From assembly GCA_023255625.1 (NCBI GenBank), contig JAHFLF010000001.1:185766-249765 (forward strand): DNA of 64,000 nucleotides. The letters run 5' to 3'. Of the stretch, positions 5,138-62,776 are shown piece after piece (positions within the stretch are counted from its first letter, which is position 1; every line of letters starts with the position of its first letter). Origin of the DNA: Candidatus Harrisonbacteria bacterium. GTDB taxonomy: Bacteria > Patescibacteriota > Minisyncoccia > UBA6257 > 1-14-0-10-44-23. The position numbers and the translations under genes are program-made. Under the pieces are notes generated by a model. It ran no database searches and was not told the origin of the DNA. It saw only the letters and a list, made by a program, of their open reading frames with translations.

Positions 5138-5146
5138 GGTATTCGT

Positions 5147-5246
5147 TAATTTTCAATTTCTAATTTTCAATTTTCAAACAATGATTTAATTTCTAAATTG
5201 ATACATTGGAAATTGTTTAGAAATTAGAAATTGAGAATTGAAAATT
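5147..5246. repeat. AT-rich palindromic intergenic element (family R2), copy 1
   Basis: aattttcaatttctaattttcaattttcaaacaatg...cattggaaattgtttagaaattagaaattgagaattgaaaatt. The two arms are reverse complements. Near-identical copies at 23912-23998 and 62656-62764. Confidence 0.7.
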
Positions 5247-5607
5247 ACCTCTCTATCTTAAGTCTATTCATCCTCACCTGCCGCAGTTTATTCTTCGGCA
5301 GCATGTTAAACACGGCATACTCAACAATGCGCTCCGGGGTGCGCTTACGCATCTCCTCTACCGGCTTTTCGCGCAAGTGGCCCTGGTAACTGGTGTGATG
5401 ATAATACATCTTATCTGTCTCTTTTTTACCGGAAAACTTTACCTTTGCCGCATTCTTCACAATCACGCGATTGCCGCCAGCAAGGCGCGGCTCATACGCG
5501 GCCGAGGTCTTGCCCTGCAGAATGGCAGAAATCTTCGTGGCTAAGCGGCCAACGATTTGGCCCTCTGCATCAATCACAAATTCTTTTATCTTTTCTTTTG
5601 TTTCCAT
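5245..5607 (-). CDS. rplM: 50S ribosomal protein L13
   Basis: VIDAEGQIVGRLATKISAILQGK...MYYHHTSYQG... is the L13 core. Start at the second Met (METKEK) is preferred; the ORF extends to 5634. Confidence 0.9.
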   Translation of the reverse strand: METKEKIKEFVIDAEGQIVGRLATKISAILQGKTSAAYEPRLAGGNRVIVKNAAKVKFSGKKETDKMYYHHTSYQGHLREKPVEEMRKRTPERIVEYAVFNMLPKNKLRQVRMNRLKIER

Positions 5608-5655: not shown

Positions 5656-5997
5656 CTATACGAATTCAATCGTCGCCATCTTAGTTCCATCGCGCATCCG
5701 CTGAACAGCATGCTTACTAATCCGCAGATAACCGCCGGTGCGATCCTTATACTTCGGTGCAATCTCATAAAAAAGTTTTTCAGCCGCCCCCTTCGGCAGA
5801 TTTGCCAGAAGCATACGCAGCTTGGCAACCTGGCCCGTTTTTGCATAACTAATATAGCGTTCAACCAAAGGCCGAATGTCTTTTGCCCGCGCCTCGGTTG
5901 TAACCATCTGCCCGTACATAATCAAACTGGTCGCAAGTTGTTTGCGAAAAGCTCGACGGCGTCCGGTGGTTCTGGCAAATTTTCTTTGGGAAACCAT
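5656..5997 (-). CDS. rplQ: 50S ribosomal protein L17
   Basis: RKFARTTGRRRAFRKQLATSLIMYGQMVTTEARAKDIRPLVERYIS... has L17 family features. Position after rpoA matches the alpha operon. Confidence 0.9.
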   Translation of the reverse strand: MVSQRKFARTTGRRRAFRKQLATSLIMYGQMVTTEARAKDIRPLVERYISYAKTGQVAKLRMLLANLPKGAAEKLFYEIAPKYKDRTGGYLRISKHAVQRMRDGTKMATIEFV

Positions 5998-6001
5998 AAA
6001 T

Positions 6002-6070
6002 TCAGTTAGTCAGTTAGTTGGTTAGTCAGTTAGTTGGCGGGATGATTTTCGGTTTTAGCTGACTAACTTT
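6002..6070. repeat. GTTAGTTRG micro-repeat hairpin (family R1), copy between rplQ and rpoA
   Basis: ttcagttagtcagttagttggttagtcagttagttggcgg...ttttagctgactaactttttt. Inverted arms gttagtcag / ctgactaac. Confidence 0.6.
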
Positions 6071-8171: not shown

Positions 8172-8555
8172 CTACTTCAGGTCTACCTTTCGTTTACCGC
8201 TACCAGCCGTTTTACGAGTATTGCCCCGCACCGTACGCGAGTTGGTTTTGGTGCGCTGACCGTGAACCGGCAAACGGCGAGCGTGACGGCTGCCTCGGTA
8301 CGAGCCCATTTCTTTGAGCATAGCTATATTTTGTCGAACCACACTGCGCAGCTCTCCTTCAATCTTGAATTTCTTTTCAATATAATCCTTGATTTGGTTA
8401 ACTTCAGATGCATCTAAATCTTTGGCCTTCTTGCCAACCGGGATGCCAACCTGCTTGATAATCTCAATTGCCCGAGCCGGCCCAACGCCGTAAATATAGC
8501 GAAGAGCAACTTCGATTCGTTTATTGTCTGGAATTGTGATACCGGCGATACGCAT
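8172..8555 (-). CDS. rpsM: 30S ribosomal protein S13
   Basis: MRIAGITIPDNKRIEVALRYIYGVGPARAIEI...GSYRGSRHARRLPVHGQRTKTNSRT. Confidence 0.9.
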   Translation of the reverse strand: MRIAGITIPDNKRIEVALRYIYGVGPARAIEIIKQVGIPVGKKAKDLDASEVNQIKDYIEKKFKIEGELRSVVRQNIAMLKEMGSYRGSRHARRLPVHGQRTKTNSRTVRGNTRKTAGSGKRKVDLK

Positions 8556-8557
8556 GA

Positions 8558-8652
8558 TCAGTTGGTTAGTTACTTAGTTAGTTGGTTAGTTAGCAGATTC
8601 GGGGTTCTTGGTTTTTACAAACTAACTAGCTAACCAAGTAACCAATTAACTT
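8558..8652. repeat. GTTAGTTRG micro-repeat hairpin (family R1)
   Basis: cagttggttagttacttagttagttggttagttagc ... aaactaactagctaaccaagtaaccaattaac. Imperfect inverted arms. Confidence 0.6.
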
Positions 8653-8659
8653 ACCCGCC

Positions 8660-8773
8660 CTATCCTTGTCGTTGCTTATGCTTAGGAATACTGCAAATAA
8701 CAAAAATTCGTCCCTGCCGGCGGACGGTCTTACACTTCTGACAAACTTTTTTTACGGATGAACGAACCTTCAT
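8660..8773 (-). CDS. rpmJ: 50S ribosomal protein L36
   Basis: Hand-translated minus-strand ORF not in the ORF track (too short): [37 protein letters not shown]. Canonical L36 with C-x2-C...C-x4-H zinc ribbon, at the expected site between infA and rpsM. Confidence 0.8.
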
Positions 8774-8880
8774 GATGATTTAACTGGTTACTTAGTTAGC
8801 TGGTTAGTTTGTTAGTTAGCGGGTTCAGGTTTTTGGTTTTTACTAACTAACCAACTCACTAACTAACCAAGTAACTCCTA
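8771..8880. repeat. GTTAGTTRG micro-repeat hairpin (family R1)
   Basis: ggttacttagttagctggttagtttgttagttagcgggttcaggtttttggtttttactaactaaccaactcactaactaaccaagtaac. Long imperfect inverted repeat. Confidence 0.6.
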
Positions 8881-9096
8881 GAGCCGTCTCGTAATCCTGC
8901 CGCGCTCTTTATCGTATGGCGTAAATTCAATGAGCACCCGGTCCCCAAGGGTGATTTTGATGTGGTACATCTTCATCTTCCCCGAGAGATGGCCTAAGGC
9001 CAATGTGTTATCCGGTAATTTGACGCGAAACATGGCGCTCGGAAGGGCCTCTTGAACGATTCCCTCAACCGCGCGGACTGCTTTAGTATCTACCAT
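8878..9096 (-). CDS. infA: Translation initiation factor IF-1
   Basis: MVDTKAVRAVEGIVQEALPSAMFRVKLPDNTLALGHLSGKMKMYHIKITLGDRVLIEFTPYDKERGRITRRL has the S1-like IF-1 signature. Internal Met start at 9096 preferred over the ORF start at 9156. Confidence 0.85.
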   Translation of the reverse strand: MVDTKAVRAVEGIVQEALPSAMFRVKLPDNTLALGHLSGKMKMYHIKITLGDRVLIEFTPYDKERGRITRRL

Positions 9097-15078: not shown

Positions 15079-15146
15079 AAAAAGGTGGCTGTGTAATTTT
15101 TCGGCAAACGGGGTTCTATTGCCGAAAAATTACACAGCCACCTTTT
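15079..15146 (-). terminator. Intrinsic terminator (27-bp perfect stem hairpin with flanking T/A runs) downstream of clpB; potentially bidirectional
   Basis: aaaaggtggctgtgtaatttttcggcaa-acggggttctat-tgccgaaaaattacacagccacctttt. U-run follows on the minus strand (ttttctcgtttcg). Confidence 0.75.
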
Positions 15147-19246: not shown

Positions 19247-19318
19247 GCGGCGGGCATTTTGGTTTTTGCAGCCATCCCGTAGGGTGGGCCCGGCTGCAAA
19301 AACCAAAATGCCCGCCGC
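19247..19318. repeat. Long perfect hairpin, family R4 copy A (27-bp stem, conserved 18-nt loop)
   Basis: gcggcgggcattttggtttttgcagcc-atcccgtagggtgggccc-ggctgcaaaaaccaaaatgcccgccgc. Directly 3' of the cysteine desulfurase gene. Confidence 0.8.
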
Positions 19319-19324
19319 ATCGTA

Positions 19325-20611
19325 CTATTGTTTTATAGATGATAACACGGTTAAGACCCGATCAATCTCTGCATCCGTTGTTAGCCGCCCCAAACTAAAA
19401 CGAATACTATTTTTAGCCCGGGTGCGGTCAAAGCCCATCGCAAGTAAAACATGCGAGGGGTCAATGGACCGGGCGGAACAGGCCGAGCCGGAAGAAACGG
19501 CTATACCTGCCAGGTCGAGCGCTACAAGCAGCTGCTCCCCTGACCGCCGAGGAATAAAAATATTAAGATTATTTGGAAGTCGACCTTGTGCGCCTCCGTT
19601 AAGTACTACACCGGGGAAAATAATTTTATTTCCTTTAAAAAGCTTGTCGCGTAATTTGGCGATTCTTTGAAATTCTTTTGAGCGCAGTGCCGATGCAATT
19701 TCCACGGCCTTAGCAAATCCGACAATCGCCGAGACATTCTCTGTACCGCTGCGAAGGCCGAATTCCTGACCACCGCCAGTCAGGATAGTGAGTAGTGAGT
19801 AGTGAGTAGTGAGTAGCTTTGAGGCAGGGACGCGACGGGCATACAAACATCCAATACCTTTTGGGCCATAAATTTTATGCGCAGAAAGCGTCATCAAATC
19901 AACTCCGAGCGCATCAACATTGCAGTCTAAATACTGAAAGGCCTGAACCGCATCAACATGAAGGAGAGGATAGTTACTTGGTTGCTTAGTTAGTTGGTTG
20001 GTTGGTTGAGAGGCGCGAAAATCGTTAACGATTTTCGCGATTTCTGCGATTGGCTGGACCGTCCCAACTTCATTGTTAGCGTACATAACTGAAACTAGTA
20101 CAGTCCGCTCGTTCAGCGCAGCTTTGAGTTTTTTTAGATCAACAATGCCTTCCCTTGAAACTGGAATAAGCACTACATCCACTCCGTCTTTTTCTAAATC
20201 ACGCGCCGTCTCTAGCACCGACTCATGTTCAATCGCGGAAATAATTAGGCGAGGTATGAATTTTCCATTCTTCATTCTTAATTGGTCATTCATCATTTGC
20301 TTTACGCTCCCGCGTAAAGCAAGATTATTCGCCTCTGTCGCACTCCCCGTAAAAATAATCTCGCTGTAGTGCGCACCGATAGCGCCGGCAATCGTCTGCC
20401 TTGGCTTAAATACCGCCGCACTCGCTGCTTGCCCAAATGAATGCAAAGACCCCGGATTTCCAAAGCTGGTTGCTTGGTTAGTTGGTTGCTTGGTTAGTTG
20501 GTTGGGAAACGATGCGCCAAACCACGGCAGCATGGCTTCAAGCACGCGCGGGTCAAGCGGAGTGGTGGACGCGTAATCAAGATAAATTCTTTTTTGCTTC
20601 ATAAAGCTCAT
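19325..20611 (-). CDS. Cysteine desulfurase (IscS/NifS family, PLP-dependent) carrying three in-frame repeat-derived insertions
   Basis: SAHKIYGPKGIG (PLP Lys), HVDAVQA, GGGQEFGLRSGT, SSGSACS. Extra segments PNQLTKQPTNQATS, SQPTNQLTKQPSNYP and LLTTHYSLLTIL are encoded by GGTTAGTTGG / AGTGAGT micro-repeats. Confidence 0.85.
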   Translation of the reverse strand: MSFMKQKRIYLDYASTTPLDPRVLEAMLPWFGASFPNQLTKQPTNQATSFGNPGSLHSFGQAASAAVFKPRQTIAGAIGAHYSEIIFTGSATEANNLALRGSVKQMMNDQLRMKNGKFIPRLIISAIEHESVLETARDLEKDGVDVVLIPVSREGIVDLKKLKAALNERTVLVSVMYANNEVGTVQPIAEIAKIVNDFRASQPTNQLTKQPSNYPLLHVDAVQAFQYLDCNVDALGVDLMTLSAHKIYGPKGIGCLYARRVPASKLLTTHYSLLTILTGGGQEFGLRSGTENVSAIVGFAKAVEIASALRSKEFQRIAKLRDKLFKGNKIIFPGVVLNGGAQGRLPNNLNIFIPRRSGEQLLVALDLAGIAVSSGSACSARSIDPSHVLLAMGFDRTRAKNSIRFSLGRLTTDAEIDRVLTVLSSIKQ

Positions 20612-23255: not shown

Positions 23256-23330
23256 GCCGCGCCTGAAATTGCATTTTACAGCCATTCGCTTGCGATGAGC
23301 CCGGCTGTAAAATGCAATTTCGGGCGCGGC
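23256..23330. repeat. Long hairpin, family R4 copy B (28-bp stem, conserved 19-nt loop)
   Basis: cgccgcgcctgaaattgcattttacagcc-attcgcttgcgatgagccc-ggctgtaaaatgcaatttcgggcgcggc. Confidence 0.8.
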
Positions 23331-23372: not shown

Positions 23373-23903
23373 ATGGCACCGAAAAAAATCACACAATCTA
23401 CTCTTCCCCAACCATTTCTCTTTAAAAACGGCCGCGGCGAACAACTGCACACCGATCAGGTAGTCCGCGAAATTGCCCGCTTTATGCTCCTACAACCACA
23501 GCGAGCATATAAGATCACTATTGGTTCAGACTCTGAACAGCTCGCCGACAAGCGTGCGGACTTTGTGACGGCCATCGTCGTGCACCGCGTTGGTAACGGC
23601 GGTATGTATTTTTGGCGACGTATTGTAGACAGCACAAAATTCCATACGCTGCGCGACAGAATTCTCCAAGAGGTGTTGCTTTCGCTGGAAATTTCGCAAC
23701 TCTTCATTGAAGAGGCAAAAATTGGCGGGCTTCCCCACTTTGATTTTGAAATCCACATTGATATTGGCGAACATGGCGCCACAAAAGTGATGATTCAGGA
23801 GCTCGTCGGCATGATCCGTGCAAATAATTTCACCGCAAAAACCAAACCCGACAGCTACGCCGCCAGTAAGGTGGCGGATAGGCATGGACTGAAGAATGAT
23901 TGA
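23373..23903 (+). CDS. YkuK/DUF458-family RNase H-like fold protein
   Basis: KITIGSDSEQ, ADFVTAIVVHRVGNGGMYFW, and C-terminal KPDSYAASKVADRHG match the YkuK-family pattern as recalled. No database check possible. Confidence 0.5.
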   Translation: MAPKKITQSTLPQPFLFKNGRGEQLHTDQVVREIARFMLLQPQRAYKITIGSDSEQLADKRADFVTAIVVHRVGNGGMYFWRRIVDSTKFHTLRDRILQEVLLSLEISQLFIEEAKIGGLPHFDFEIHIDIGEHGATKVMIQELVGMIRANNFTAKTKPDSYAASKVADRHGLKND

Positions 23904-23911
23904 GTACAGTC

Positions 23912-23998
23912 AAATTTTCAATTTCTAATTTTCAAACAATGATTTAATTTCAGAATTTCTAAATTGGAAATTGTTTAGAAATTGAAAATTGAAAATTA
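23912..23998. repeat. AT-rich palindromic element family R2, copy 2
   Basis: aattttcaatttctaattttcaaacaatgatttaatttcagaatttctaaattggaaattgtttagaaattgaaaattgaaaatt. Over 85 percent identical to copy 1. Confidence 0.7.
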
Positions 23999-24591
23999 AT
24001 GAACCAATGGACACTATTGTCCTCGACATCGAAACCAAAGACATGTACGGTGGGGCATCGGGAAAAATAATTTCCGACCTCTCGCCGTCTTTTGTTGGAA
24101 TTTATTCATATTCTGGAAATAAATATTCTGGCTATTTTGAAAGTGATTTCCCTGACCTAAAAAAACTGTTGAGCGAACCGGCACTCTTAGTCGGCTTTTC
24201 TTCAAATCGGTTTGACCTGCCGATTTTAAGCCGCGTACTGAATCTTGTTTTTGATAAGCATCCGAAAGTAGACCTTTGCGAAGAACTGGAAATACGCACC
24301 GGCCGGCGGGTTGGTCTGAATACGCTCGCCCTCATCAATCTGGGCAAAGGCAAAACCGGCGCCGGGCTGGATGCTCCACAACTTTTCGCCGAAGGAAAAC
24401 TTGAAGAGCTCAAAAGCTACTGTCTGAATGATGTGCAACTCACAAAAGAACTATATGACTTAATTCGTACAAAAAAAGAATTAAAAATCCCAAAGCAAGA
24501 AAGTGTCTTTTCAAATCAGCTCGGACTTTTTGAAAAAGATAAGCTAGAAAAAGTAAAAATAGATTTGGGGCCATTACTAACTTTCATATAA
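23989..24591 (+). CDS. DEDD-family 3'-5' exonuclease (DnaQ/RNase T/RNase D-like)
   Basis: TIVLDIETKD (Exo I DxE), FSSNRFDLPIL (Exo II), YCLNDVQLTKELY (Exo III Y-x3-D). Confidence 0.6.
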   Translation: MKINEPMDTIVLDIETKDMYGGASGKIISDLSPSFVGIYSYSGNKYSGYFESDFPDLKKLLSEPALLVGFSSNRFDLPILSRVLNLVFDKHPKVDLCEELEIRTGRRVGLNTLALINLGKGKTGAGLDAPQLFAEGKLEELKSYCLNDVQLTKELYDLIRTKKELKIPKQESVFSNQLGLFEKDKLEKVKIDLGPLLTFI

Positions 24592-24600
24592 TGAACCCTG

Positions 24601-24674
24601 CGCGGTGGCAATATGTTTTTGCCAGCCATTCGCTTGCGATGGGCCCGGCTGGAAAAAACATATTGCCACCGCGC
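24601..24674. repeat. Long hairpin, family R4 copy C
   Basis: cgcggtggcaatatgtttttgccagcc-attcgcttgcgatgggccc-ggctggaaaaaacatattgccaccgcg. Confidence 0.8.
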
Positions 24675-24726
24675 CCCCATTCGTACTCCTGCCTACCGGC
24701 AGGCAGGTTCGTAAAAAATTCGTAAT

Positions 24727-24804
24727 TCACGAGCCATCAGTTTGCATTTTGAAGCCATCCCGAAGGGTGAGCCCGGCTTCAAAATGCAAACTGATGGCTC
24801 GTGA
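24727..24804. repeat. Long hairpin, family R4 copy D (30-bp perfect stem)
   Basis: tcacgagccatcagtttgcattttgaagcc-atcccgaagggtgagccc-ggcttcaaaatgcaaactgatggctcgtga. Confidence 0.8.
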
Positions 24805-24884
24805 TTAAATCCGGGTATAAAAAAGCGGGGCCTCGACATGCGTCTTGGCCCCCATTCCCGGATTGTGCGCCGGGGCGCTGCGAG

Positions 24885-25058
24885 GAGCTAGTCCTCGCTC
24901 TCCCACCGCAGATGCGCGATTGCACTGCGCGGAGACCAGACGAGCAGGACCAGCCAGCCAAGGAACCCCATGAGCCAGTTATCGCCAGGCGTCATGTTGT
25001 ATCCGCCCGCTTGCTTCGCCGATCCCTCTGTCTCCACTCTCTTCTTGAACCACAACAT
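24885..25058 (-). CDS. Small hydrophobic protein (57 aa, one TM helix) in GC-rich island
   Basis: MLWFKKRVETEGSAKQAGGYNMTPGDNWLMGFLGWLVLLVWSPRSAIAHLRWESED. SD GGAGGAG 5 nt upstream, -35 TTGACA / -10 TACTAT promoter at 25136-25165. Intrinsic terminator at 24815-24850 (ggggcc...ggcccc + T-run). Confidence 0.35.
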
Positions 25059-25270
25059 GGTCTCCTCCACCCACCGCCACAAAACGGGCGGCAGAATTGA
25101 CCGTTCCCTCCCAGCGCACGCCGGGAAGACCAAAAATAGTATGTTCCTTTTTATTCGCTTGTCAAGCATCTAAAAAAATGGTCTTGGCTCTTTACTGCAC
25201 AATCCAAAAAAGTAGTATACTGATTTTGTCATGGGCTTAGACCTTTGTCCGAAGAACGGGAGGTGCGGGA

Positions 25271-25471
25271 ATGTTGAGGATGCAGAATGAATACTGCAGG
25301 AATTGTCTTTCAACCCAGCGGTTCCTGGACCTCGGCGCGAGTCTCGTGTGCGAGCGCTGCACGGCGCGCCTGTACAGAGTCGCGGATCGCCCAGCGCCGC
25401 ATCCAGAAGGCCAGATCGCCGCCGTGAGGGCGGTGCCGGAGAGCTTGCTTCGCGAACGCGAAGCTGGCTGA
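25271..25471 (+). CDS. Small Zn-ribbon-like protein (66 aa, CxxC-x17-CxxC) in GC-rich island
   Basis: MLRMQNEYCRNCLSTQRFLDLGASLVCERCTARLY... SD GGGAGGTG upstream. Terminator gcgagtccggc...gccggactcgc + T-run at 25470-25515. Divergent from the small TM gene. Confidence 0.4.
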   Translation: MLRMQNEYCRNCLSTQRFLDLGASLVCERCTARLYRVADRPAPHPEGQIAAVRAVPESLLREREAG

Positions 25472-25526
25472 CGAGCAGCGAGTCCGGCCTCCCGTGGGAA
25501 GCCGGACTCGCACTATTTTTATCTTT

Positions 25527-29718: not shown

Positions 29719-30426
29719 ATGACTAAGGAACTTGTCCGAGTGAAGCTGCTCATCTTCGCCATCGCACCGAACGAAAAGGAGCGACGGACCGCTGCCGCAA
29801 GTCACACGGCCGAAGGGTATATGCGTGATGGCCCACAGATGCTCGGGATCTGTCTGGCAACCTTCGACCAACTGCCTCAGCTGCTCGCGGCCGTCCGGAA
29901 GACTGAAGAGTTCAGGCGCGATGCCGCGGGTCGGGCGGAAAGCGAGGCTGGCAGGATGTTCGCTGCTGCACTGCGCAACGAATCGGATCGGGAAGAGTTC
30001 TATGCTCACACCGTCGCCATCGGCATCATGATGAGTATCGCCGCAGCTTGTCAGGATGCGGGCATGCTCTTCACGCCGGAATTCCCGCGCTACAACCTCC
30101 GCGCTGCCTCAGATACCTACATTAAGACATCCATGAAGGTGGTCCCAGGGATCACGATCTGCATCGGCCCGCATTTCCAGAAGGAGCATCCCTACCTGGT
30201 CATGATCTACGACAAGCCGGGGCTGCTCTGGTGCGGCGAGGCGGCCAAGCTCCCGGAGATCAACTTCGAGACCAGCGCGTGCACACCCGACCCAACGGAT
30301 GTCGCGTGGACGGAGTCCTACTACACCATGTTCTGCTACCACACCGGCATGAAGACCAAATGGCGTAAGAAGGACTCGCCATTCACCAGTGTCGGTGGTC
30401 ACGGCGGATCCTACGGCGGGCACTAG
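29719..30426 (+). CDS. Hypothetical protein (235 aa), GC-rich island gene 1
   Basis: High-GC codon usage. Gly/His-rich C-terminus SVGGHGGSYGGH. No family recognised. Confidence 0.45.
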   Translation: MTKELVRVKLLIFAIAPNEKERRTAAASHTAEGYMRDGPQMLGICLATFDQLPQLLAAVRKTEEFRRDAAGRAESEAGRMFAAALRNESDREEFYAHTVAIGIMMSIAAACQDAGMLFTPEFPRYNLRAASDTYIKTSMKVVPGITICIGPHFQKEHPYLVMIYDKPGLLWCGEAAKLPEINFETSACTPDPTDVAWTESYYTMFCYHTGMKTKWRKKDSPFTSVGGHGGSYGGH

Positions 30427-30462: not shown

Positions 30463-31710
30463 ATGAACAAGGCGCTTCTCGTCGTCTACCCGGGCGGGCT
30501 CGCTGGCGGCGGTACGCTCCAGCAGATCCGCGCCAGCTACACCGACCTCGCCGCTCTGGCGGCGAGTCTCGGCATGAGGTTCGAGACGGCCTGGGATCCG
30601 CGCTCGAATCTGCCTGCGCCTACATTTCCGCTGGTCCTGGGCAGTGCCGGCTACTACGCCCGGCATCAGGAGCTCAAGCAGTGGGCAGGCGAGGTGCGCA
30701 CACGGCTGCACGAACAAGGCGTGAGCGAGCTGACGGTGTATGGCTTCGGGTACACCAGCTTCATCCCCTACGCCTTCGAAGGATACGACGATGTTCGGGT
30801 GATCTGGGGAGACTGCTCCCCGCCTGACACCGATGTTCTCGGCGGCGATCTCTCGTCGCGCTTCTACGGCAAGGCCTACGAACGGACGCGCGGCCTCTGC
30901 TACGGCTGGCATGAGGGAGGGCCACTCACGCGCCGGCCACTGATGTATTCGTACTCCATGACCGCGCAACCGTTTGGCAAGGAGTATGTCGGGTCTCTGC
31001 TGGCGCAGCGTCTCACAACTCCCGAACCGCTCGGTGGCGAGGGGGCGATCAGGATTGTGCTCTCGGCTTCAGACATCTGGTCGCCGAATGCAATCGGTGT
31101 CTGGATGACCGAGCAGCAGCACCGTGACACCGTTCTCCGGACGGCGCTTCTCATGGACGCCATTCGAACCTGCGCGCAGCAACTCGGGCGCAAGGTTGTC
31201 CTCTACGCGCACCCGACTCTTCGCAAGGTCAATGTTCCGACGCGCAGCTTCTATCCCAACCAGAGCGGACTGGAGGGATTTGCGGAGGCCGGAGGCATCA
31301 CCCTGGTGGACACGCACACGAGCGCGTGGACACCGGAGCAGTATCGGGCGCTCTTGCGAAGCGCCAACCTGGTCGTAACTCGCGCGTCGCATTCGGTAAC
31401 CTCTGCCGAATGTGCAGCGATGGGAATCCCCCAGGCACTCTGCCCCATGCCGTCAATGGGGTACATGAACGAAGGAGAGTTCACCTCTGACATTCGGGAC
31501 CGCGGGCTGGCCATGGTCCTCGATCCTCTGTCGCGGGGGCTGTGGCGACAGATCGCCACGGCGCTGACCGACGACAATCTGCGGCGCGACACCACCCGCC
31601 GCGCCTGCGAAGAGTTCGACAGGATCAATGACCGCCAGAACTTCTTCAAGAATCTAGCAACCCTCATCGAAGTTTCCTGGAGAAATTCAGATGACTACGA
31701 AGTAGCATAG
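30463..31710 (+). CDS. GT-B fold glycosyltransferase-like protein (GT1/GT28-like), GC-rich island gene 2
   Basis: N-terminal ALLVVYPGGLAGGGTLQQI (Gly-rich loop after beta1). C-terminal SANLVVTRASHSVTSAECAAMGIPQALCPMP resembles the GT1/MurG donor-binding motif. SD gaaggag upstream. Confidence 0.5.
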   Translation: MNKALLVVYPGGLAGGGTLQQIRASYTDLAALAASLGMRFETAWDPRSNLPAPTFPLVLGSAGYYARHQELKQWAGEVRTRLHEQGVSELTVYGFGYTSFIPYAFEGYDDVRVIWGDCSPPDTDVLGGDLSSRFYGKAYERTRGLCYGWHEGGPLTRRPLMYSYSMTAQPFGKEYVGSLLAQRLTTPEPLGGEGAIRIVLSASDIWSPNAIGVWMTEQQHRDTVLRTALLMDAIRTCAQQLGRKVVLYAHPTLRKVNVPTRSFYPNQSGLEGFAEAGGITLVDTHTSAWTPEQYRALLRSANLVVTRASHSVTSAECAAMGIPQALCPMPSMGYMNEGEFTSDIRDRGLAMVLDPLSRGLWRQIATALTDDNLRRDTTRRACEEFDRINDRQNFFKNLATLIEVSWRNSDDYEVA

Positions 31711-31718
31711 CAACCTGA

Positions 31719-31747
31719 CCCGGGCGGCGCTTGCAAGCGCCGCCCGG
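31719..31747 (+). terminator. GC hairpin between GT and GH84 genes (ccgggcggcgc-ttgcaa-gcgccgcccgg)
   Basis: 11-bp perfect GC stem with no clear U-run. May be a processing site or weak terminator. Confidence 0.35.
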
Positions 31748-31769
31748 ACAGACACCATACTTATATACT

Positions 31770-33314
31770 ATGCAGAAAAAATTATTCGGAATCGTTGAAG
31801 GATTCTTTTCAAGCCCGCTGCCGCTCTGGTCAAATTCAGAGCGTATTTCGATTATTCAACTTCTCGCAGAACAACCTTCTTTGATTAACGCATATCTTTA
31901 TTGCCCTAAAAATGATGTCTACGTAACTTCGGAATGGGCAACTCTATATACTCAAAAAAATATTAAGCCCATTATAAAAGCAGCACGATTATGCTCACGC
32001 ACTAATATCAATTTCTACTACGGCCTCAACCCAACTCTTACAGATTTCTCAGAAAGATCATCAAAAAATACGGCACGAAAGATTATTAAAAAATTAGAAC
32101 AACTTAGAACATTAGGCATAGACTCGTTTTGTCTCCTATTTGATGACATACCCTTTGCCTATAATATTCTTGCTGACGAAAAATCAATACGGGACGCACA
32201 AGCAGGCGCGGCACAAGCCATCATTGCCAATGTAGTGTACGATTGGCTCGGTAATAAACCGGGGGCACTACTGGTCTGCTCATCAGAATATTTTTTTACA
32301 CGCAAAACAAAATTTCTTGAGGCATTTGACAGCACTCTTAAAAAAGATATTCCTGTGCTCTGGACGGGGTCAGGCGTGTATGAAAAAAATCTCGGAAGCA
32401 GTACTGTTGTCGCGGCTCAAAATTCTATTGCCGCAGAGAGGCCCCTCATATGGTGGAACAATTATCCGGTTAATGATTGCGAACACATTCCTGGAACATT
32501 CCACTTCGGTGCTTTTAACGGCCCACCCATAAAAGCCTTCCAAAAACTAGATGGCATTTTTGTTAATCCCATGCGAGAAGCCATGCTGAATATAGGAGTG
32601 CTCGCGACATTCAAACAATACCTGGAAAATCCTAGACAATATAATCGCGATAGAGCACTTAGGGTGGTATGTACAGAAAAATTTGGTAAAGCGGGCAGGG
32701 CTCTCTACCGGCTTGGATCTTCATTCGCAGATAAAAATACGGTTGATGCTGAACCAAGAGAATATGCTAAAAAAATCCTCGCTGTAAAAACTAATGAGCA
32801 GCTACGGATTGTATATGCATCTATCAACGCGGACCAAAAACTTATTGAGGCATATAAAAAGAACGACGCTGACTCTGCGTGGGGATCATTTTGCTTGTAC
32901 ATAGCAATGCTTTTAAAGCCGCGCATCAAAGCAGCTATGCAAGTAGCTCAAACTAACAAGGCGGGCTTTGAGAAAATAACAGAGCCGTTACTTAGATTTC
33001 CTGTTGTAACCGAAAAACGCTACCTTACTAAAATCTATAAAACAATCATGGATAGGCAGAGGATGATCTCTGCCTGGCAAAACTTCGGGAATGTAGCATT
33101 ATTAAATGCCATTTCAAACCTCGGTATCCTCTATGGGAAATATAACGGGAAAAATCGTCTCTCTATCAGCAGTTCCGATGAAGCAATGTTGCGAAAAAAT
33201 ATCAAAATTACTATCAGGAAACAAAAGGAACTTCTAGTTAAGTATTGTTTAGTCGCCGATAAAATTAAAAAAATAAAAACACTAATAAGATGGTGGAATA
33301 TGAATGGTTATTGA
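31770..33314 (+). CDS. Glycoside hydrolase family 84 protein (O-GlcNAcase / beta-N-acetylglucosaminidase NagJ-like)
   Basis: LFGIVEGFFSSPLPLW, YLYCPKNDVY, FYYGLNPTLT, FCLLFDDIP (catalytic Asp-Asp), LLVCSSEYFF, RPLIWWNNYPVNDC, DGIFVNPMREA are the GH84 catalytic-domain motifs, in order. ATG at 31770 preferred over the TTG at 31731. Confidence 0.7.
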   Translation: MQKKLFGIVEGFFSSPLPLWSNSERISIIQLLAEQPSLINAYLYCPKNDVYVTSEWATLYTQKNIKPIIKAARLCSRTNINFYYGLNPTLTDFSERSSKNTARKIIKKLEQLRTLGIDSFCLLFDDIPFAYNILADEKSIRDAQAGAAQAIIANVVYDWLGNKPGALLVCSSEYFFTRKTKFLEAFDSTLKKDIPVLWTGSGVYEKNLGSSTVVAAQNSIAAERPLIWWNNYPVNDCEHIPGTFHFGAFNGPPIKAFQKLDGIFVNPMREAMLNIGVLATFKQYLENPRQYNRDRALRVVCTEKFGKAGRALYRLGSSFADKNTVDAEPREYAKKILAVKTNEQLRIVYASINADQKLIEAYKKNDADSAWGSFCLYIAMLLKPRIKAAMQVAQTNKAGFEKITEPLLRFPVVTEKRYLTKIYKTIMDRQRMISAWQNFGNVALLNAISNLGILYGKYNGKNRLSISSSDEAMLRKNIKITIRKQKELLVKYCLVADKIKKIKTLIRWWNMNGY

Positions 33315-33317
33315 AAT

Positions 33318-34061
33318 TTAATCTTTCTTCTCTCCCTCCCTATTTTTCGCAATCTTATTCAGCAACTTATCCAAATCCCCATCCAGCACCGTCTCAATTT
33401 CATGCACTTTTGCATTAAATCGGTGGTCGGTAATCCGGTCATCTGGAAAATTGTAGGTACGGATTTTTTCTGACCGGTCGCCGGTGCCTACTACATCACT
33501 GCGACTGCCCGAAAACTGGCTAAGCTCTTTTTCGCGCTGCATAGCAAACAACTTAGCGCGCAGTACCGACATCGCCGTCTCGCGATTAGCGTGCTGGCTA
33601 CGCTCGGCGCGGCTGCTTACCACAATGCCGGTTGGCTTGTGTGTTACGCGCACGGCCGTTTCAACTTTGTTCACATTCTGGCCGCCCGGCCCGCCGGCCC
33701 GGCTAAAAGTTACTAAAATATCACTGTCATTGATGACAACCTCTTTTGGCTCAACCTCCGGAAGTATGGCAACGGTTGCAGTTGAGGTGTGTACTCTCCC
33801 CTGTCTCTCGGTAGCCGGAACACGCTGCACGCGGTGCGTACCGCTTTCTAACTTAAGCGCATCATACGCGCCTGTTCCGGTAATCCGCGCGGCAAAAAAC
33901 TTATACCCGCCATTACCCATGTCGTTTGAATCAAGCAATTGAAAAGCCCAGCCCTTATTCTGACTGTAGCGCTGATACATGCGCGCTAAATTACCGGCAA
34001 ACAGCCCGGCCTCGTCGCCGCCGACACCTGCTCGAATTTCTAAAATAACTTTGTTGGTCAT
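33318..34061 (-). CDS. prfA: Peptide chain release factor 1 homolog lacking the N-terminal domain 1
   Basis: 247 aa. [40 protein letters not shown] (PxT = PAT, RF1-type), [26 protein letters not shown] (GGQ). Starts where RF1 domain 2 begins; upstream 174 bp is non-coding. Confidence 0.75.
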
Positions 34062-34194
34062 ACCCTTTTAAAGTGGAGGCACTGGGTTTGACCCTAGACG
34101 GCCCTCTCGCAGGCCGAGGAGGCCGAGAGGAGTCGCTGCGCGAGCCGCGCGCAGATAGACGGGGCCGGTCTGGGGCAAAACCAGTGCCGAAACA

Positions 34195-34215
34195 TTGTGC
34201 TATAATACAATAAAG
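34195..34215. promoter_or_regulatory. Overlapping divergent promoters (extended -10 TGcTATAAT for + strand receiver gene; TTGCCT-17-TATTAT on minus strand for prfA-like gene)
   Basis: cattgtgctataatacaataaagcatgctgttaggcaacaaacATG. Minus-strand reading gives ttgcctaacagcatgctttattgtattat. Confidence 0.4.
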
Positions 34216-34235
34216 CATGCTGTTAGGCAACAAAC

Positions 34236-34634
34236 ATGAAAAATTTACTGCCACTTATATTGGTCGCTGACGAGGAAAAAGAATTCCGCGATCTGATCGT
34301 CGATGTACTACACACCAAAGGATTTCAAACTGCAACCGCAAGCAACGGCGAAGATGCCGTCGCCGCGGCCCGCAAATATCATCCGGCGCTTATTCTAATG
34401 GATGTGGATATGCCGAAAAAAAACGGGATTGAGGCCACGCTAGAACTACAGCAGGATCCGCACACTAAGAATATCAAAATCATGTATCTTTCTAATCTCG
34501 GCGACGCTTCCTGGGCGGCGGCGACCGAAACAAATCGAAAATTGGCAAAACAAATAGGGGCCGTTGATTATTTTAAAAAAGGCGGCAATTTAGATACGCT
34601 GATTGATCGCATCAGATTCCACTTGGCCTCCTGA
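34236..34634 (+). CDS. Stand-alone response regulator receiver domain protein (CheY-like)
   Basis: LILVADEE...LILMDVDMPKKNG...KIMYLSNLG... Conserved acidic pocket and phospho-acceptor Asp (ILMDVD). Confidence 0.75.
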   Translation: MKNLLPLILVADEEKEFRDLIVDVLHTKGFQTATASNGEDAVAAARKYHPALILMDVDMPKKNGIEATLELQQDPHTKNIKIMYLSNLGDASWAAATETNRKLAKQIGAVDYFKKGGNLDTLIDRIRFHLAS

Positions 34635-34654
34635 TATAAGATACCAATATACAA

Positions 34655-35071
34655 ATGGTACTAATGCAACGAATGAATACTAATCAGACAACTCAAAAAT
34701 CTGAACTTCTGTATCCTCAACTTTCATTTACTATTGTCGGTGTACTTTTTGACGCCCATAATGAGCTCGGGCCCTATGCCAGAGAAAAACAATACGGCGA
34801 TAGCATCGAGGCAAAATTTAAGTTTGCAAAAATACCCTATCGACGAGAATGCGCTATTGGAACATCCACAAATATAGCTGATTTTATTATCAATGATTTA
34901 ATATTGATTGAACTAAAAAGTAAGCGACTCCTGTTGCGAGAAGATTATGAACAAACACAGCGCTACTTGCAGGCAGGAAATTTACGCCTTGGCTTACTGG
35001 TGAATTTCCGGAATAAGTATTTGAAACCTGTTCGCGTTGTTAAAATAGATAGCCCTCATCGTAACTATTAG
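34655..35071 (+). CDS. GxxExxY-family protein (PD-(D/E)xK nuclease-like fold)
   Basis: ELGPYAREKQYGDSIEAKFKFAKIPYRRE...ADFIINDLILIELKSKRLL...YLQAGNLRLGLLVNFRNKYLKPVRVV matches the family pattern along its length. Confidence 0.65.
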   Translation: MVLMQRMNTNQTTQKSELLYPQLSFTIVGVLFDAHNELGPYAREKQYGDSIEAKFKFAKIPYRRECAIGTSTNIADFIINDLILIELKSKRLLLREDYEQTQRYLQAGNLRLGLLVNFRNKYLKPVRVVKIDSPHRNY

Positions 35072-35118
35072 TAATTATTGGTATCATTCGTTTAATTAGT
35101 AAATTAGTATCTTCCATC

Positions 35119-35520
35119 ATGCGTCAACAACCCCTCGTACTCCTAGCCGACGATAATGCTGATTTTAAAGAGATTATCTCTGCTAAACTTGTGCAGCAGG
35201 GTTTTGAAATTGCCGAGGCAAATGACGGAGAGGAGGCAATCGCGAAAGCAAAAGCTCTGAAACCGGATCTGATCGTCATGGACATTGATATGCCCCATGT
35301 AAACGGCACCGAGGCCGTGCTGGAAATTAAGGGCAATGCAGATACTAAAGATATTCCGATTATTTTTTTCTCAAGTTTGGAACACCCCTGGCCCGGCAAT
35401 GTTTCGGCCGACAAAACAGAGTTTGCCAAAGACCTTGGCGCGGTAACCTTCCTGAAAAAAAGTGAAGACTTGAATGTGATCGTGGAGACGATCAAGAAGT
35501 TGGCTAAACCCATTGGCTAA
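35119..35520 (+). CDS. Stand-alone response regulator receiver domain protein (paralog of 34236..34634)
   Basis: LVLLADDNADF...LIVMDIDMPHVNG...IIFFSSLE. Same architecture and length as the upstream receiver. Confidence 0.75.
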   Translation: MRQQPLVLLADDNADFKEIISAKLVQQGFEIAEANDGEEAIAKAKALKPDLIVMDIDMPHVNGTEAVLEIKGNADTKDIPIIFFSSLEHPWPGNVSADKTEFAKDLGAVTFLKKSEDLNVIVETIKKLAKPIG

Positions 35521-62291: not shown

Positions 62292-62665
62292 TCTCTGTTG
62301 CTGTTCTTGATGTGTCGGCTAAAAGGTACGAGAAAAAAATTACACATGCAGCCCACGAGCTTGTCATTCTTTTATCTATTACAAGAAAGCATGTTGATAT
62401 CCTGCTCGTTGGCGACAAGCAGATGCAAAAAAATGTTCTGGCCTTTCCGGCCGATCCTGGCTTCCCCCGCCCAGACCTAACTGAACCATCGCTTGGCGAG
62501 ATTCATCTAAACCCAACATATATTCAAGCGCATAATGAAGACTTATTACTCATGCTCACACATGGATTTCTACATCTGCTTGGCTACGATCACGAGAACA
62601 GCCGTGATAGAATAGTGATGGAGAAAAAGGAGCGAGAACTTCTCGCGAAACTGGCTAATTTCTAA
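62288..62665 (+). CDS. ybeY: rRNA maturation endoribonuclease YbeY
   Basis: LTHGFLHLLGYDHE is the H-x3-H-x5-H zinc motif. Confidence 0.8.
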   Translation: MISVAVLDVSAKRYEKKITHAAHELVILLSITRKHVDILLVGDKQMQKNVLAFPADPGFPRPDLTEPSLGEIHLNPTYIQAHNEDLLLMLTHGFLHLLGYDHENSRDRIVMEKKERELLAKLANF

Positions 62666-62764
62666 TTTAAAATTTCTAATTCCTAAACAATTTCTAATGT
62701 TTTAATTTTGAAATTTAAGCATTGAGATATTGTTTGAAAATTGAAAATTAGAAATTGAAAATTA
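62656..62764. repeat. AT-rich palindromic element family R2, copy 3 (diverged)
   Basis: aatttctaatttaaaatttctaattcctaaacaatttctaatg...cattgagatattgtttgaaaattgaaaattagaaattgaaaatt. Confidence 0.6.
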
Positions 62765-62776
62765 CTCTGCTACCCC

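Follow-up and report, generated by a model that had tools for sequence, protein, structure and literature searches.

The gene at 33318-34061 on the minus strand of the window (the whole 64-kb stretch of DNA that was analysed) encodes complete RF1 domains 2-4 and nothing else. Taken as a whole, the observations are best explained by a functional, orthologous RF1 that is a natural minimal factor of domains 2-4, together with an upstream hairpin that is separate and recent, and this explanation is held with considerable confidence. Domain 1 serves as the handle for recycling by RF3 and contacts the L11 stalk. To our knowledge it is present in the RF1 and RF2 of essentially all characterised bacteria, and we know of no demonstration of its dispensability other than those made with engineered E. 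coli proteins. A natural codon-reading RF1 without domain 1 is a form not described in the searchable literature, in which no description of such a protein from Patescibacteria was found, only general background on domain 1 and on PrfH.

An RF1 core of domains 2, 3 and 4

The features of the gene and of the region directly upstream are as follows.

33318-34061, minus strand: prfA-type gene, ATG start and TAA stop, encoding a 247-aa RF1 of domains 2, 3 and 4 only
33678-33686, minus strand: catalytic GGQ codons (GGC GGC CAG), G126-G127-Q128
33810-33818, minus strand: PAT codons (CCG GCT ACC), P82-A83-T84, the RF1 'anticodon' tripeptide PxT
34068-34070, minus strand: in-frame TAA two codons 5' of the ATG; the stop-to-stop segment is 33321-34067
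34062-34235: 174 bp upstream of the gene, with two mechanical ORFs, one on the minus strand (87 aa, starting with GTG) and one on the plus strand (46 aa)

The PCRF and RF-1 domains stand in the order typical of RF1, and RF1 surpasses RF2 as the best match. Pfam PCRF (5e-42) is covered only at profile positions 100-194 of 194, while Pfam RF-1 (9e-38) is covered at positions 4-116 of 116. In the two NCBIfam prfA equivalogs the protein spans positions 104-344 of 347 and 112-353 of 361. Because about 105 positions, equivalent to the absent domain, are missing from these alignments, the scores fall short of the equivalog cut-offs (362.6 versus 400 bits for NF001859 and 359.7 versus 423 for TIGR00019).

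Comparison with proteins in the PDB by phmmer aligned residues 5-243 colinearly with residues 111-350 of E. coli RF1, 107-340 of Thermus thermophilus RF1 and 85-322 of Thermotoga maritima RF1. The T. maritima protein was the top PDB sequence match (2.5e-80), and RF1 sequences scored 1e-80 versus 1e-43 for RF2. The decoding motifs are kept: the PAT tripeptide in its RF1 context (Q-R-V-P-x-T-E), the helix-tip sequence RAGVGGDEA (RAGxGGxE) and GRVHTS. In the RF1 alignment (A1), residues G14, G15, E17, P82, T84, E85, G88, R89, H91, T92 and S93 are invariant, as is G126-G127-Q128. An AlphaFold2 model of the 247-aa protein (pLDDT 82, pTM 0.77) superposed on free or compact RF1 structures across 238-247 columns (1rq0, TMq 0.83, rmsd 2.2 Å; 6orl, TMq 0.84), and the fold search gave 47-48% identity to T. 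thermophilus RF1. Residues 125-131 had low pLDDT, as expected for the flexible GGQ loop.

A profile HMM of domain 1 was made from the N-termini of 79 full-length RF1 proteins and run on six-frame stop-to-stop segments. Across the six frames of the 64-kb window its best E-value was only 0.68, and at the closest genome loci, nine in number (L005-L013), it had no match within 3 kb on either side. Full-length RF1 loci from other phyla, which served as positive controls, gave values of 1e-21 to 1e-35. The in-frame TAA two codons before the ATG excludes an N-terminal extension. Furthermore, no second RF-type gene, prfB included, was found in the window or at any of 177 loci. The other ~540 kb of the genome could still encode prfC, another RF1 of full length or a domain 1 that forms a protein by itself.

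An earlier sequence-only reading of this DNA had described an RF1 core with PAT and GGQ, and that core proved intact by Pfam, NCBIfam, PDB comparison, alignment and predicted fold. The alignment to RF1 and RF2 families that it had proposed as a check came out in favour of RF1 (360-363 bits for the NCBIfam prfA models versus 232 for prfB). Its claim that domain 1 is missing in its entirety was borne out by an alignment that begins at E. coli residue 111 and by the negative domain-1 HMM, and the HMM, run in all frames, found no split, frameshifted or diverged domain 1 within reach, the forms in which that reading had allowed for the domain to be present after all. Its description of the 174 bp upstream as non-coding needs qualification, in that two mechanical ORFs are present there, but the substance of it stands, as neither shows any resemblance to RF domain 1.

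A circular permutation, or a domain 1 carried at the C-terminus, was also considered and rejected. The long 'N-truncated' RF1 entries in databases are contig-edge fragments or duplicated assemblies, and the fragments carry out-of-frame, Arg-rich tails.

Distribution of short and shortened RF1 proteins

The short form is widespread among relatives. The closest 120 protein clusters (90% identity) all lie between 217 and 279 aa in length, most of them between 238 and 256 aa, and in 115 the RAGxGG motif is preceded by only 8-16 residues. Named sources include Harrison-, Lipton-, Wolfe-, Colwell- and Jorgensenbacteria and 'Paceibacterota' (Patescibacteria/Paceibacteria), and the sequences come from independent assemblies in NCBI, JGI, ENA and Logan. 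A metagenome search for close relatives yielded nothing nearer than 66% identity among the matches listed. In databases these proteins are named merely 'PCRF domain-containing protein', because they lie below the NCBI equivalog cut-off; the loss of domain 1 thus explains the bare label that annotation pipelines assign. Comparison with seven orthologues gave dN of 0.10-0.12, dS of at least 1.8 (saturated) and dN/dS of 0.03-0.06, showing that the RF1 core is under strong purifying selection.

These data bear on whether the gene is an artefact or a pseudogene, that is, a prfA 5'-truncated, frameshifted or split by assembly error or recent decay. A GC-rich insertion does lie directly upstream, and in Logan the contig of the same organism (L001) starts inside that element, 67 nt upstream of the ATG. 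However, over 100 protein clusters, drawn from independent assemblies, share this start (MTNK.ILEIRAG) and length, and in the closest relatives the divergent neighbouring gene starts 42-51 bp upstream, leaving no space for 105 codons. With a domain-1 signal in no frame and a dN/dS as low as that given above, such an origin is extremely improbable.

Domain 1 is not simply present or absent in this part of the bacterial tree. RF1 genes from 80 species genomes and 80 metagenome contigs were sorted according to how many residues precede domain 2. Proteins without domain 1 have ~8-13 residues there and comprise the closest relatives, at 57% identity or more. A class with a shortened domain 1 has ~82-99 residues (Parcubacteria RAAC4_OD1_1, Kaiserbacteria, Taylorbacteria and others), and the RF1 of Nomurabacteria has 29-57. 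The canonical class, found outside the CPR in Bacteroidota, Cyanobacteria/Melainabacteria, Ignavibacteria and others, has ~113-117. Of the shortened domains, no more than the C-terminal half can be recognised (HMM positions ~50-103, E-values of 1e-3 to 1e-6). Loci with 29-99 residues before domain 2 were found both in genomes (L016, L017, L029, L042, L046, L063, L074, L082) and in metagenomes (L109, L126, L137-L141, L149, L155, L159, L169).

On a rough neighbour-joining tree of domains 2-4, the RF1 proteins without domain 1 form one coherent clade beside Patescibacteria with the shortened domain, and a few further independent truncations are seen. A large clade of Patescibacteria (class Paceibacteria/Parcubacteria) is shown to have the architecture without domain 1 as its fixed state, and the shortened-domain RF1 proteins of other Patescibacteria are intermediate states, a natural deletion series. 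Because sister Parcubacteria keep a shortened and diverged domain 1, it was concluded that the domain was eroded stepwise and then lost within Patescibacteria. The same truncation had been suggested as something to look for in related genomes; it is the state of the whole clade, with intermediates in sister lineages.

The tree is also relevant to whether the gene is a specialised paralogue, a rescue or regulatory factor like PrfH or ArfB, in a genome that encodes a full-length RF1 elsewhere. The known GGQ proteins without domain 1 (PrfH, ArfB/ICT1) are indeed accessory factors, and the analysis covers 64 kb of a genome of ~600 kb. Against this, the protein scores far higher as RF1 than as PrfH (76 bits) or ArfB (50 bits) and keeps all of the RF1 decoding motifs, and the short forms are sister to the shortened-domain RF1 of Patescibacteria, as orthologues should be. 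In addition, no genome occurs twice among the 80 genome loci listed, and the search of the window and the 177 loci for another RF gene was negative. A paralogue is accordingly considered decidedly unlikely.

Provision of domain 1 in trans, as a helical domain that is encoded by a separate small gene and associates with the core, is judged very unlikely, somewhat more so than a paralogue. Domain 1 is poorly conserved, such that a diverged free copy could escape the HMM, and the window spans only ~10% of the genome. Nevertheless, no match was found in the window or near the orthologues, no relocation to the C-terminus was seen, and sister lineages shorten the domain progressively in cis rather than by fission. 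An orthologous RF1 that has lost domain 1 outright remains the preferred reading.

The spacer upstream of prfA and other features of the window

Between prfA and the divergent response-regulator gene lies a GC-rich, hairpin-forming element, with promoter-like sequences at its side.

34078-34190, no strand assigned: 113-nt stretch of 70% G+C with a hairpin-forming element (34078-34188), from folding
34078-34085 and 34181-34188: 8-bp closing stem, GGCACTGG and CCAGTGCC, enclosing 95 nt
34202-34230, minus strand: promoter-like, sigma-70-like TTGCCT-17 nt-TATTAT, a consensus match only
34198-34206, plus strand: extended -10 (TGCTATAAT), directed towards the divergent response-regulator gene at 34236-34634 and overlapping the minus-strand -10

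The G+C content of the 113-nt stretch compares with roughly 46% for the genome. In the predicted fold, the closing stem surrounds a three-way junction. Folding energies for the 174-nt region are -72.8 kcal/mol (z -4.5) on the minus strand, the sense of prfA, and a better -81.7 kcal/mol (z -5.6) on the plus strand, antisense to prfA; 200 shuffles yielded no fold as good. The predicted promoter start lies ~5 nt ahead of the hairpin, which would be a 5'-proximal stem-loop of the prfA mRNA if this promoter is used. If prfA is instead transcribed from an A/T-rich, -10-like box by the ATG, as a leaderless mRNA, the hairpin lies outside the message.

Orthologous loci differ greatly in this spacer, whose length between the divergent genes ranges from 42 to 204 bp, and the promoter -10 block is the only part of it that is conserved. 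Six orthologous spacers of 42-51 bp have no hairpin (L002, L003, L089, L173, L176, L177), among them those of the two closest relatives (87% protein identity). In two others, of 80-82 bp, a small GC-rich hairpin stands at the corresponding position, one of 165 bp has an AT-rich hairpin of 100 nt (z -3.0), the L087 spacer carries a purine-rich insert of 204 bp without structure (z 0.1), and one of 116 bp is known from its length alone. L085, L171 and L172 are the loci in which this position is taken by hairpins that differ in sequence. These states are scattered over the gene tree. Since the closest orthologous loci do not have the element and its occurrence across the gene tree is patchy, it was concluded to be a recent, lineage-specific insertion or expansion.

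The alternative account of the element is that it controls prfA or the response regulator, either as a conserved leader acting in cis or as the gene of a small RNA. The strong predicted structure with its three-way junction, the location directly 3' of a promoter-like site and the hairpins of other sequence at the same position in three orthologous loci all speak for it. On the other hand, the element is absent from 6 of the 11 orthologous spacers read (6 of 12 with the one known by length), spacers with and without it are intermingled on the gene tree, and L087 carries its unstructured insert instead. Rfam 15, searched at gathering and down to an E-value of 10, returned for 34078-34190 only unrelated eukaryotic snoRNA and sRNA models far below gathering (best E 0.69-6), and no further copies were found in the window or the 177 loci by exact, 3-mismatch or short-word BLAST searches. 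Gapped patterns of the element's ends had no match in the metagenome collection or in 185,579 species genomes, a GTDB-representative collection that does not include the source genome. Such a role is therefore considered unlikely.

The spacer is instead a fast-turnover site for hairpin-forming inserts. The DNA that separates the divergent promoters of prfA and the response regulator is hypervariable, and a hairpin-forming sequence probably entered it by insertion or arose in it by expansion; this sequence would at most stabilise the prfA mRNA rather than act as a conserved switch. Of the GC-rich structured 5'UTR that had been read from the sequence, the closing stem and a real fold, judged by its z-score, were upheld; conservation as a leader was not, the element being absent from the closest orthologues. 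Its significance is minor, as an illustration of how quickly hairpin inserts turn over in one intergenic spacer.

Apparent 'compensatory' stem changes between the window and L085 were disregarded, as any two perfect stems aligned at their base look so by construction. In the Logan assembly of the same organism, positions 1-67 of L001 correspond to 34062-34128 of the window, and the contig breaks inside the GC-rich element. The break may have arisen from coverage or from the assembly graph at the GC-rich hairpin, or it may reflect a repeat that went unrecognised.

Synteny around prfA is conserved in relatives, with one or two response-regulator genes beside it. In the window, two single-domain response-regulator genes flank a PD-(D/E)XK (PDDEXK_3) gene (34236-35520, plus strand); all close relatives keep the response-regulator pair in synteny with prfA, and no histidine kinase was seen nearby. 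On the other side, a 415-aa ORF with no Pfam match (30463-31710, plus strand, 62-73% G+C) forms a block with 29719-30426 and 31731-33314, and the beta-N-acetylglucosaminidase gene that adjoins it ends 3 bp from the prfA stop. Relatives have FtsK, NUDIX or NlpC/P60 genes in the prfA neighbourhood in place of this block, which suggests a local insertion or rearrangement.

Elsewhere in the window, a full-length match to the LOOT RNA (RF03000) was found at 315-432 on the plus strand (79.4 bits versus a gathering threshold of 46.4, E 1e-15), overlapping the mechanical start of the ORF at 390-1205. A family of hairpins of 67-78 nt occurs at 15080-15146, 19247-19318, 23256-23330, 24600-24674 and 24727-24804. 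Their arms, of 27-30 bp, are 96-100% complementary and differ in sequence between copies, and a similar apical part (..CAGCC-ATTCGCTTGCGATGGGCCC-GGCTG..) is common to those at 19247-19318, 23256-23330 and 24600-24674. Because T-runs lie 5' and A-runs 3' of the inner stem, these hairpins are unlike ordinary intrinsic terminators, and Rfam gave only weak matches to miRNA-precursor models. The region 24592-25526, ~930 bp without an ORF of at least 120 aa and with GC-rich pockets of up to 72% G+C, holds two of these perfect hairpins and has no convincing Rfam match. Several intergenic regions carry AT-rich, low-complexity palindromic repeats (AATTTCTAATTTTCAA... type) and short-period repeats of the GTTAGT/GGTTAG type (5138-5249, 23902-24003 and 62656-62767; also 5989-6042, 8553-8884, 19969-20018 and 20469-20514).

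Proposed termination without domain 1 and comparison with known systems

The 56 long ORFs in the window end in TAA (30), TAG (14) and TGA (12). Because all three stop codons are in use, the standard code applies, and an RF2 for UGA is expected outside the window. In the mechanism proposed here, the 247-aa RF1 would occupy the A site and recognise UAA and UAG with its PAT loop and the tip of helix alpha5, and its GGQ would enter the peptidyl-transferase centre as in any RF1. It would make no contact with the L11/L7-L12 stalk region and would lie beyond recycling by RF3, so that it would dissociate from the ribosome spontaneously. Judging from its sequence, the short RF1 should catalyse peptide release at UAA and UAG, which fits both the use of TAA and TAG and the purifying selection on the gene.

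Work on E. coli RF1 gives these steps a precedent. E. coli RF1 from which domain 1 was removed is reported to retain codon specificity and peptide release and to function in vivo, while domain 1 is required to stimulate nucleotide exchange on RF3 (Mora et al., 2003, in PMC1586002). A spontaneous, RF3-independent exit fits these E. coli results. By analogy, RF3-independent dissociation without contact to the L11 stalk appears to be the most likely consequence of the truncation.

The sequence-only reading had suggested that the truncation may reflect loss of RF3-dependent recycling; loss of RF3 would not by itself account for the loss of the domain. Many bacteria without RF3 retain domain 1, and RF3 loss alone is thus insufficient as an explanation. 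It is tentatively proposed, with rather less than even confidence, that Paceibacteria terminate translation with minimal class-I factors, maybe RF2 too, and perhaps without RF3. If this is true, the axis formed by domain 1, the L11 stalk and RF3 recycling is dispensable in nature, and the full, half and absent forms of domain 1 in Patescibacteria record its dismantling or, conversely, an ancestral release factor of two modules.

The findings imply that a large and ecologically abundant radiation, the ultrasmall Patescibacteria, has long been terminating translation without domain 1, the loss of which joins the list of simplifications of the ribosome and translation in this group. The short RF1 proteins are ready-made minimal factors for biochemistry and cryo-EM, and the natural deletion series (~115, 85, 30-57 and 10 residues) offers a means of asking what domain 1 contributes.

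Among known proteins, PrfH (RFH; TIGR03072) also lacks domain 1 and retains GGQ and a module like domain 2. PrfH proteins have altered decoding residues and an RtcB-like partner gene, whereas the neighbours of prfA in the window are response-regulator and NAGidase genes, with none that is RtcB-like. With 76 bits versus a cut-off of 167, the window protein is not PrfH. ArfB/ICT1 (PRK09256) is likewise a GGQ peptidyl-tRNA hydrolase without domain 1. It consists of domain 3 and a basic C-terminal tail and has no codon-recognition domain, whereas the window protein keeps the full decoding domains 2 and 4 and matches ArfB only at residues 106-140 (50 bits versus a cut-off of 100). That the protein is unusual beside the known GGQ proteins without domain 1, as the sequence-only reading had it, is confirmed by these scores set against 360 bits for prfA.

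Bacterial RF1 (prfA; TIGR00019/PRK00591) is colinear with the window protein in domains 2, 3 and 4 and shares PxT, GGQ, RAGxGGxE and GR(I/V)HTS with it, but has the N-terminal helical domain 1 of ~105 residues that is wholly missing here. The RF1 proteins of other Patescibacteria (RAAC4_OD1_1, Kaiser-, Taylor- and Nomurabacteria) are orthologues, with 51-55% identity in domains 2-4, and differ in having 29-99 residues before domain 2, half a domain 1, where the window protein has none. The same architecture is found in the engineered E. coli RF1 without domain 1 (Mora et al., 2003, in PMC1586002). That protein is a laboratory construct in a host with RF3, whereas the form encoded in the window is natural, ancient and fixed in its clade.
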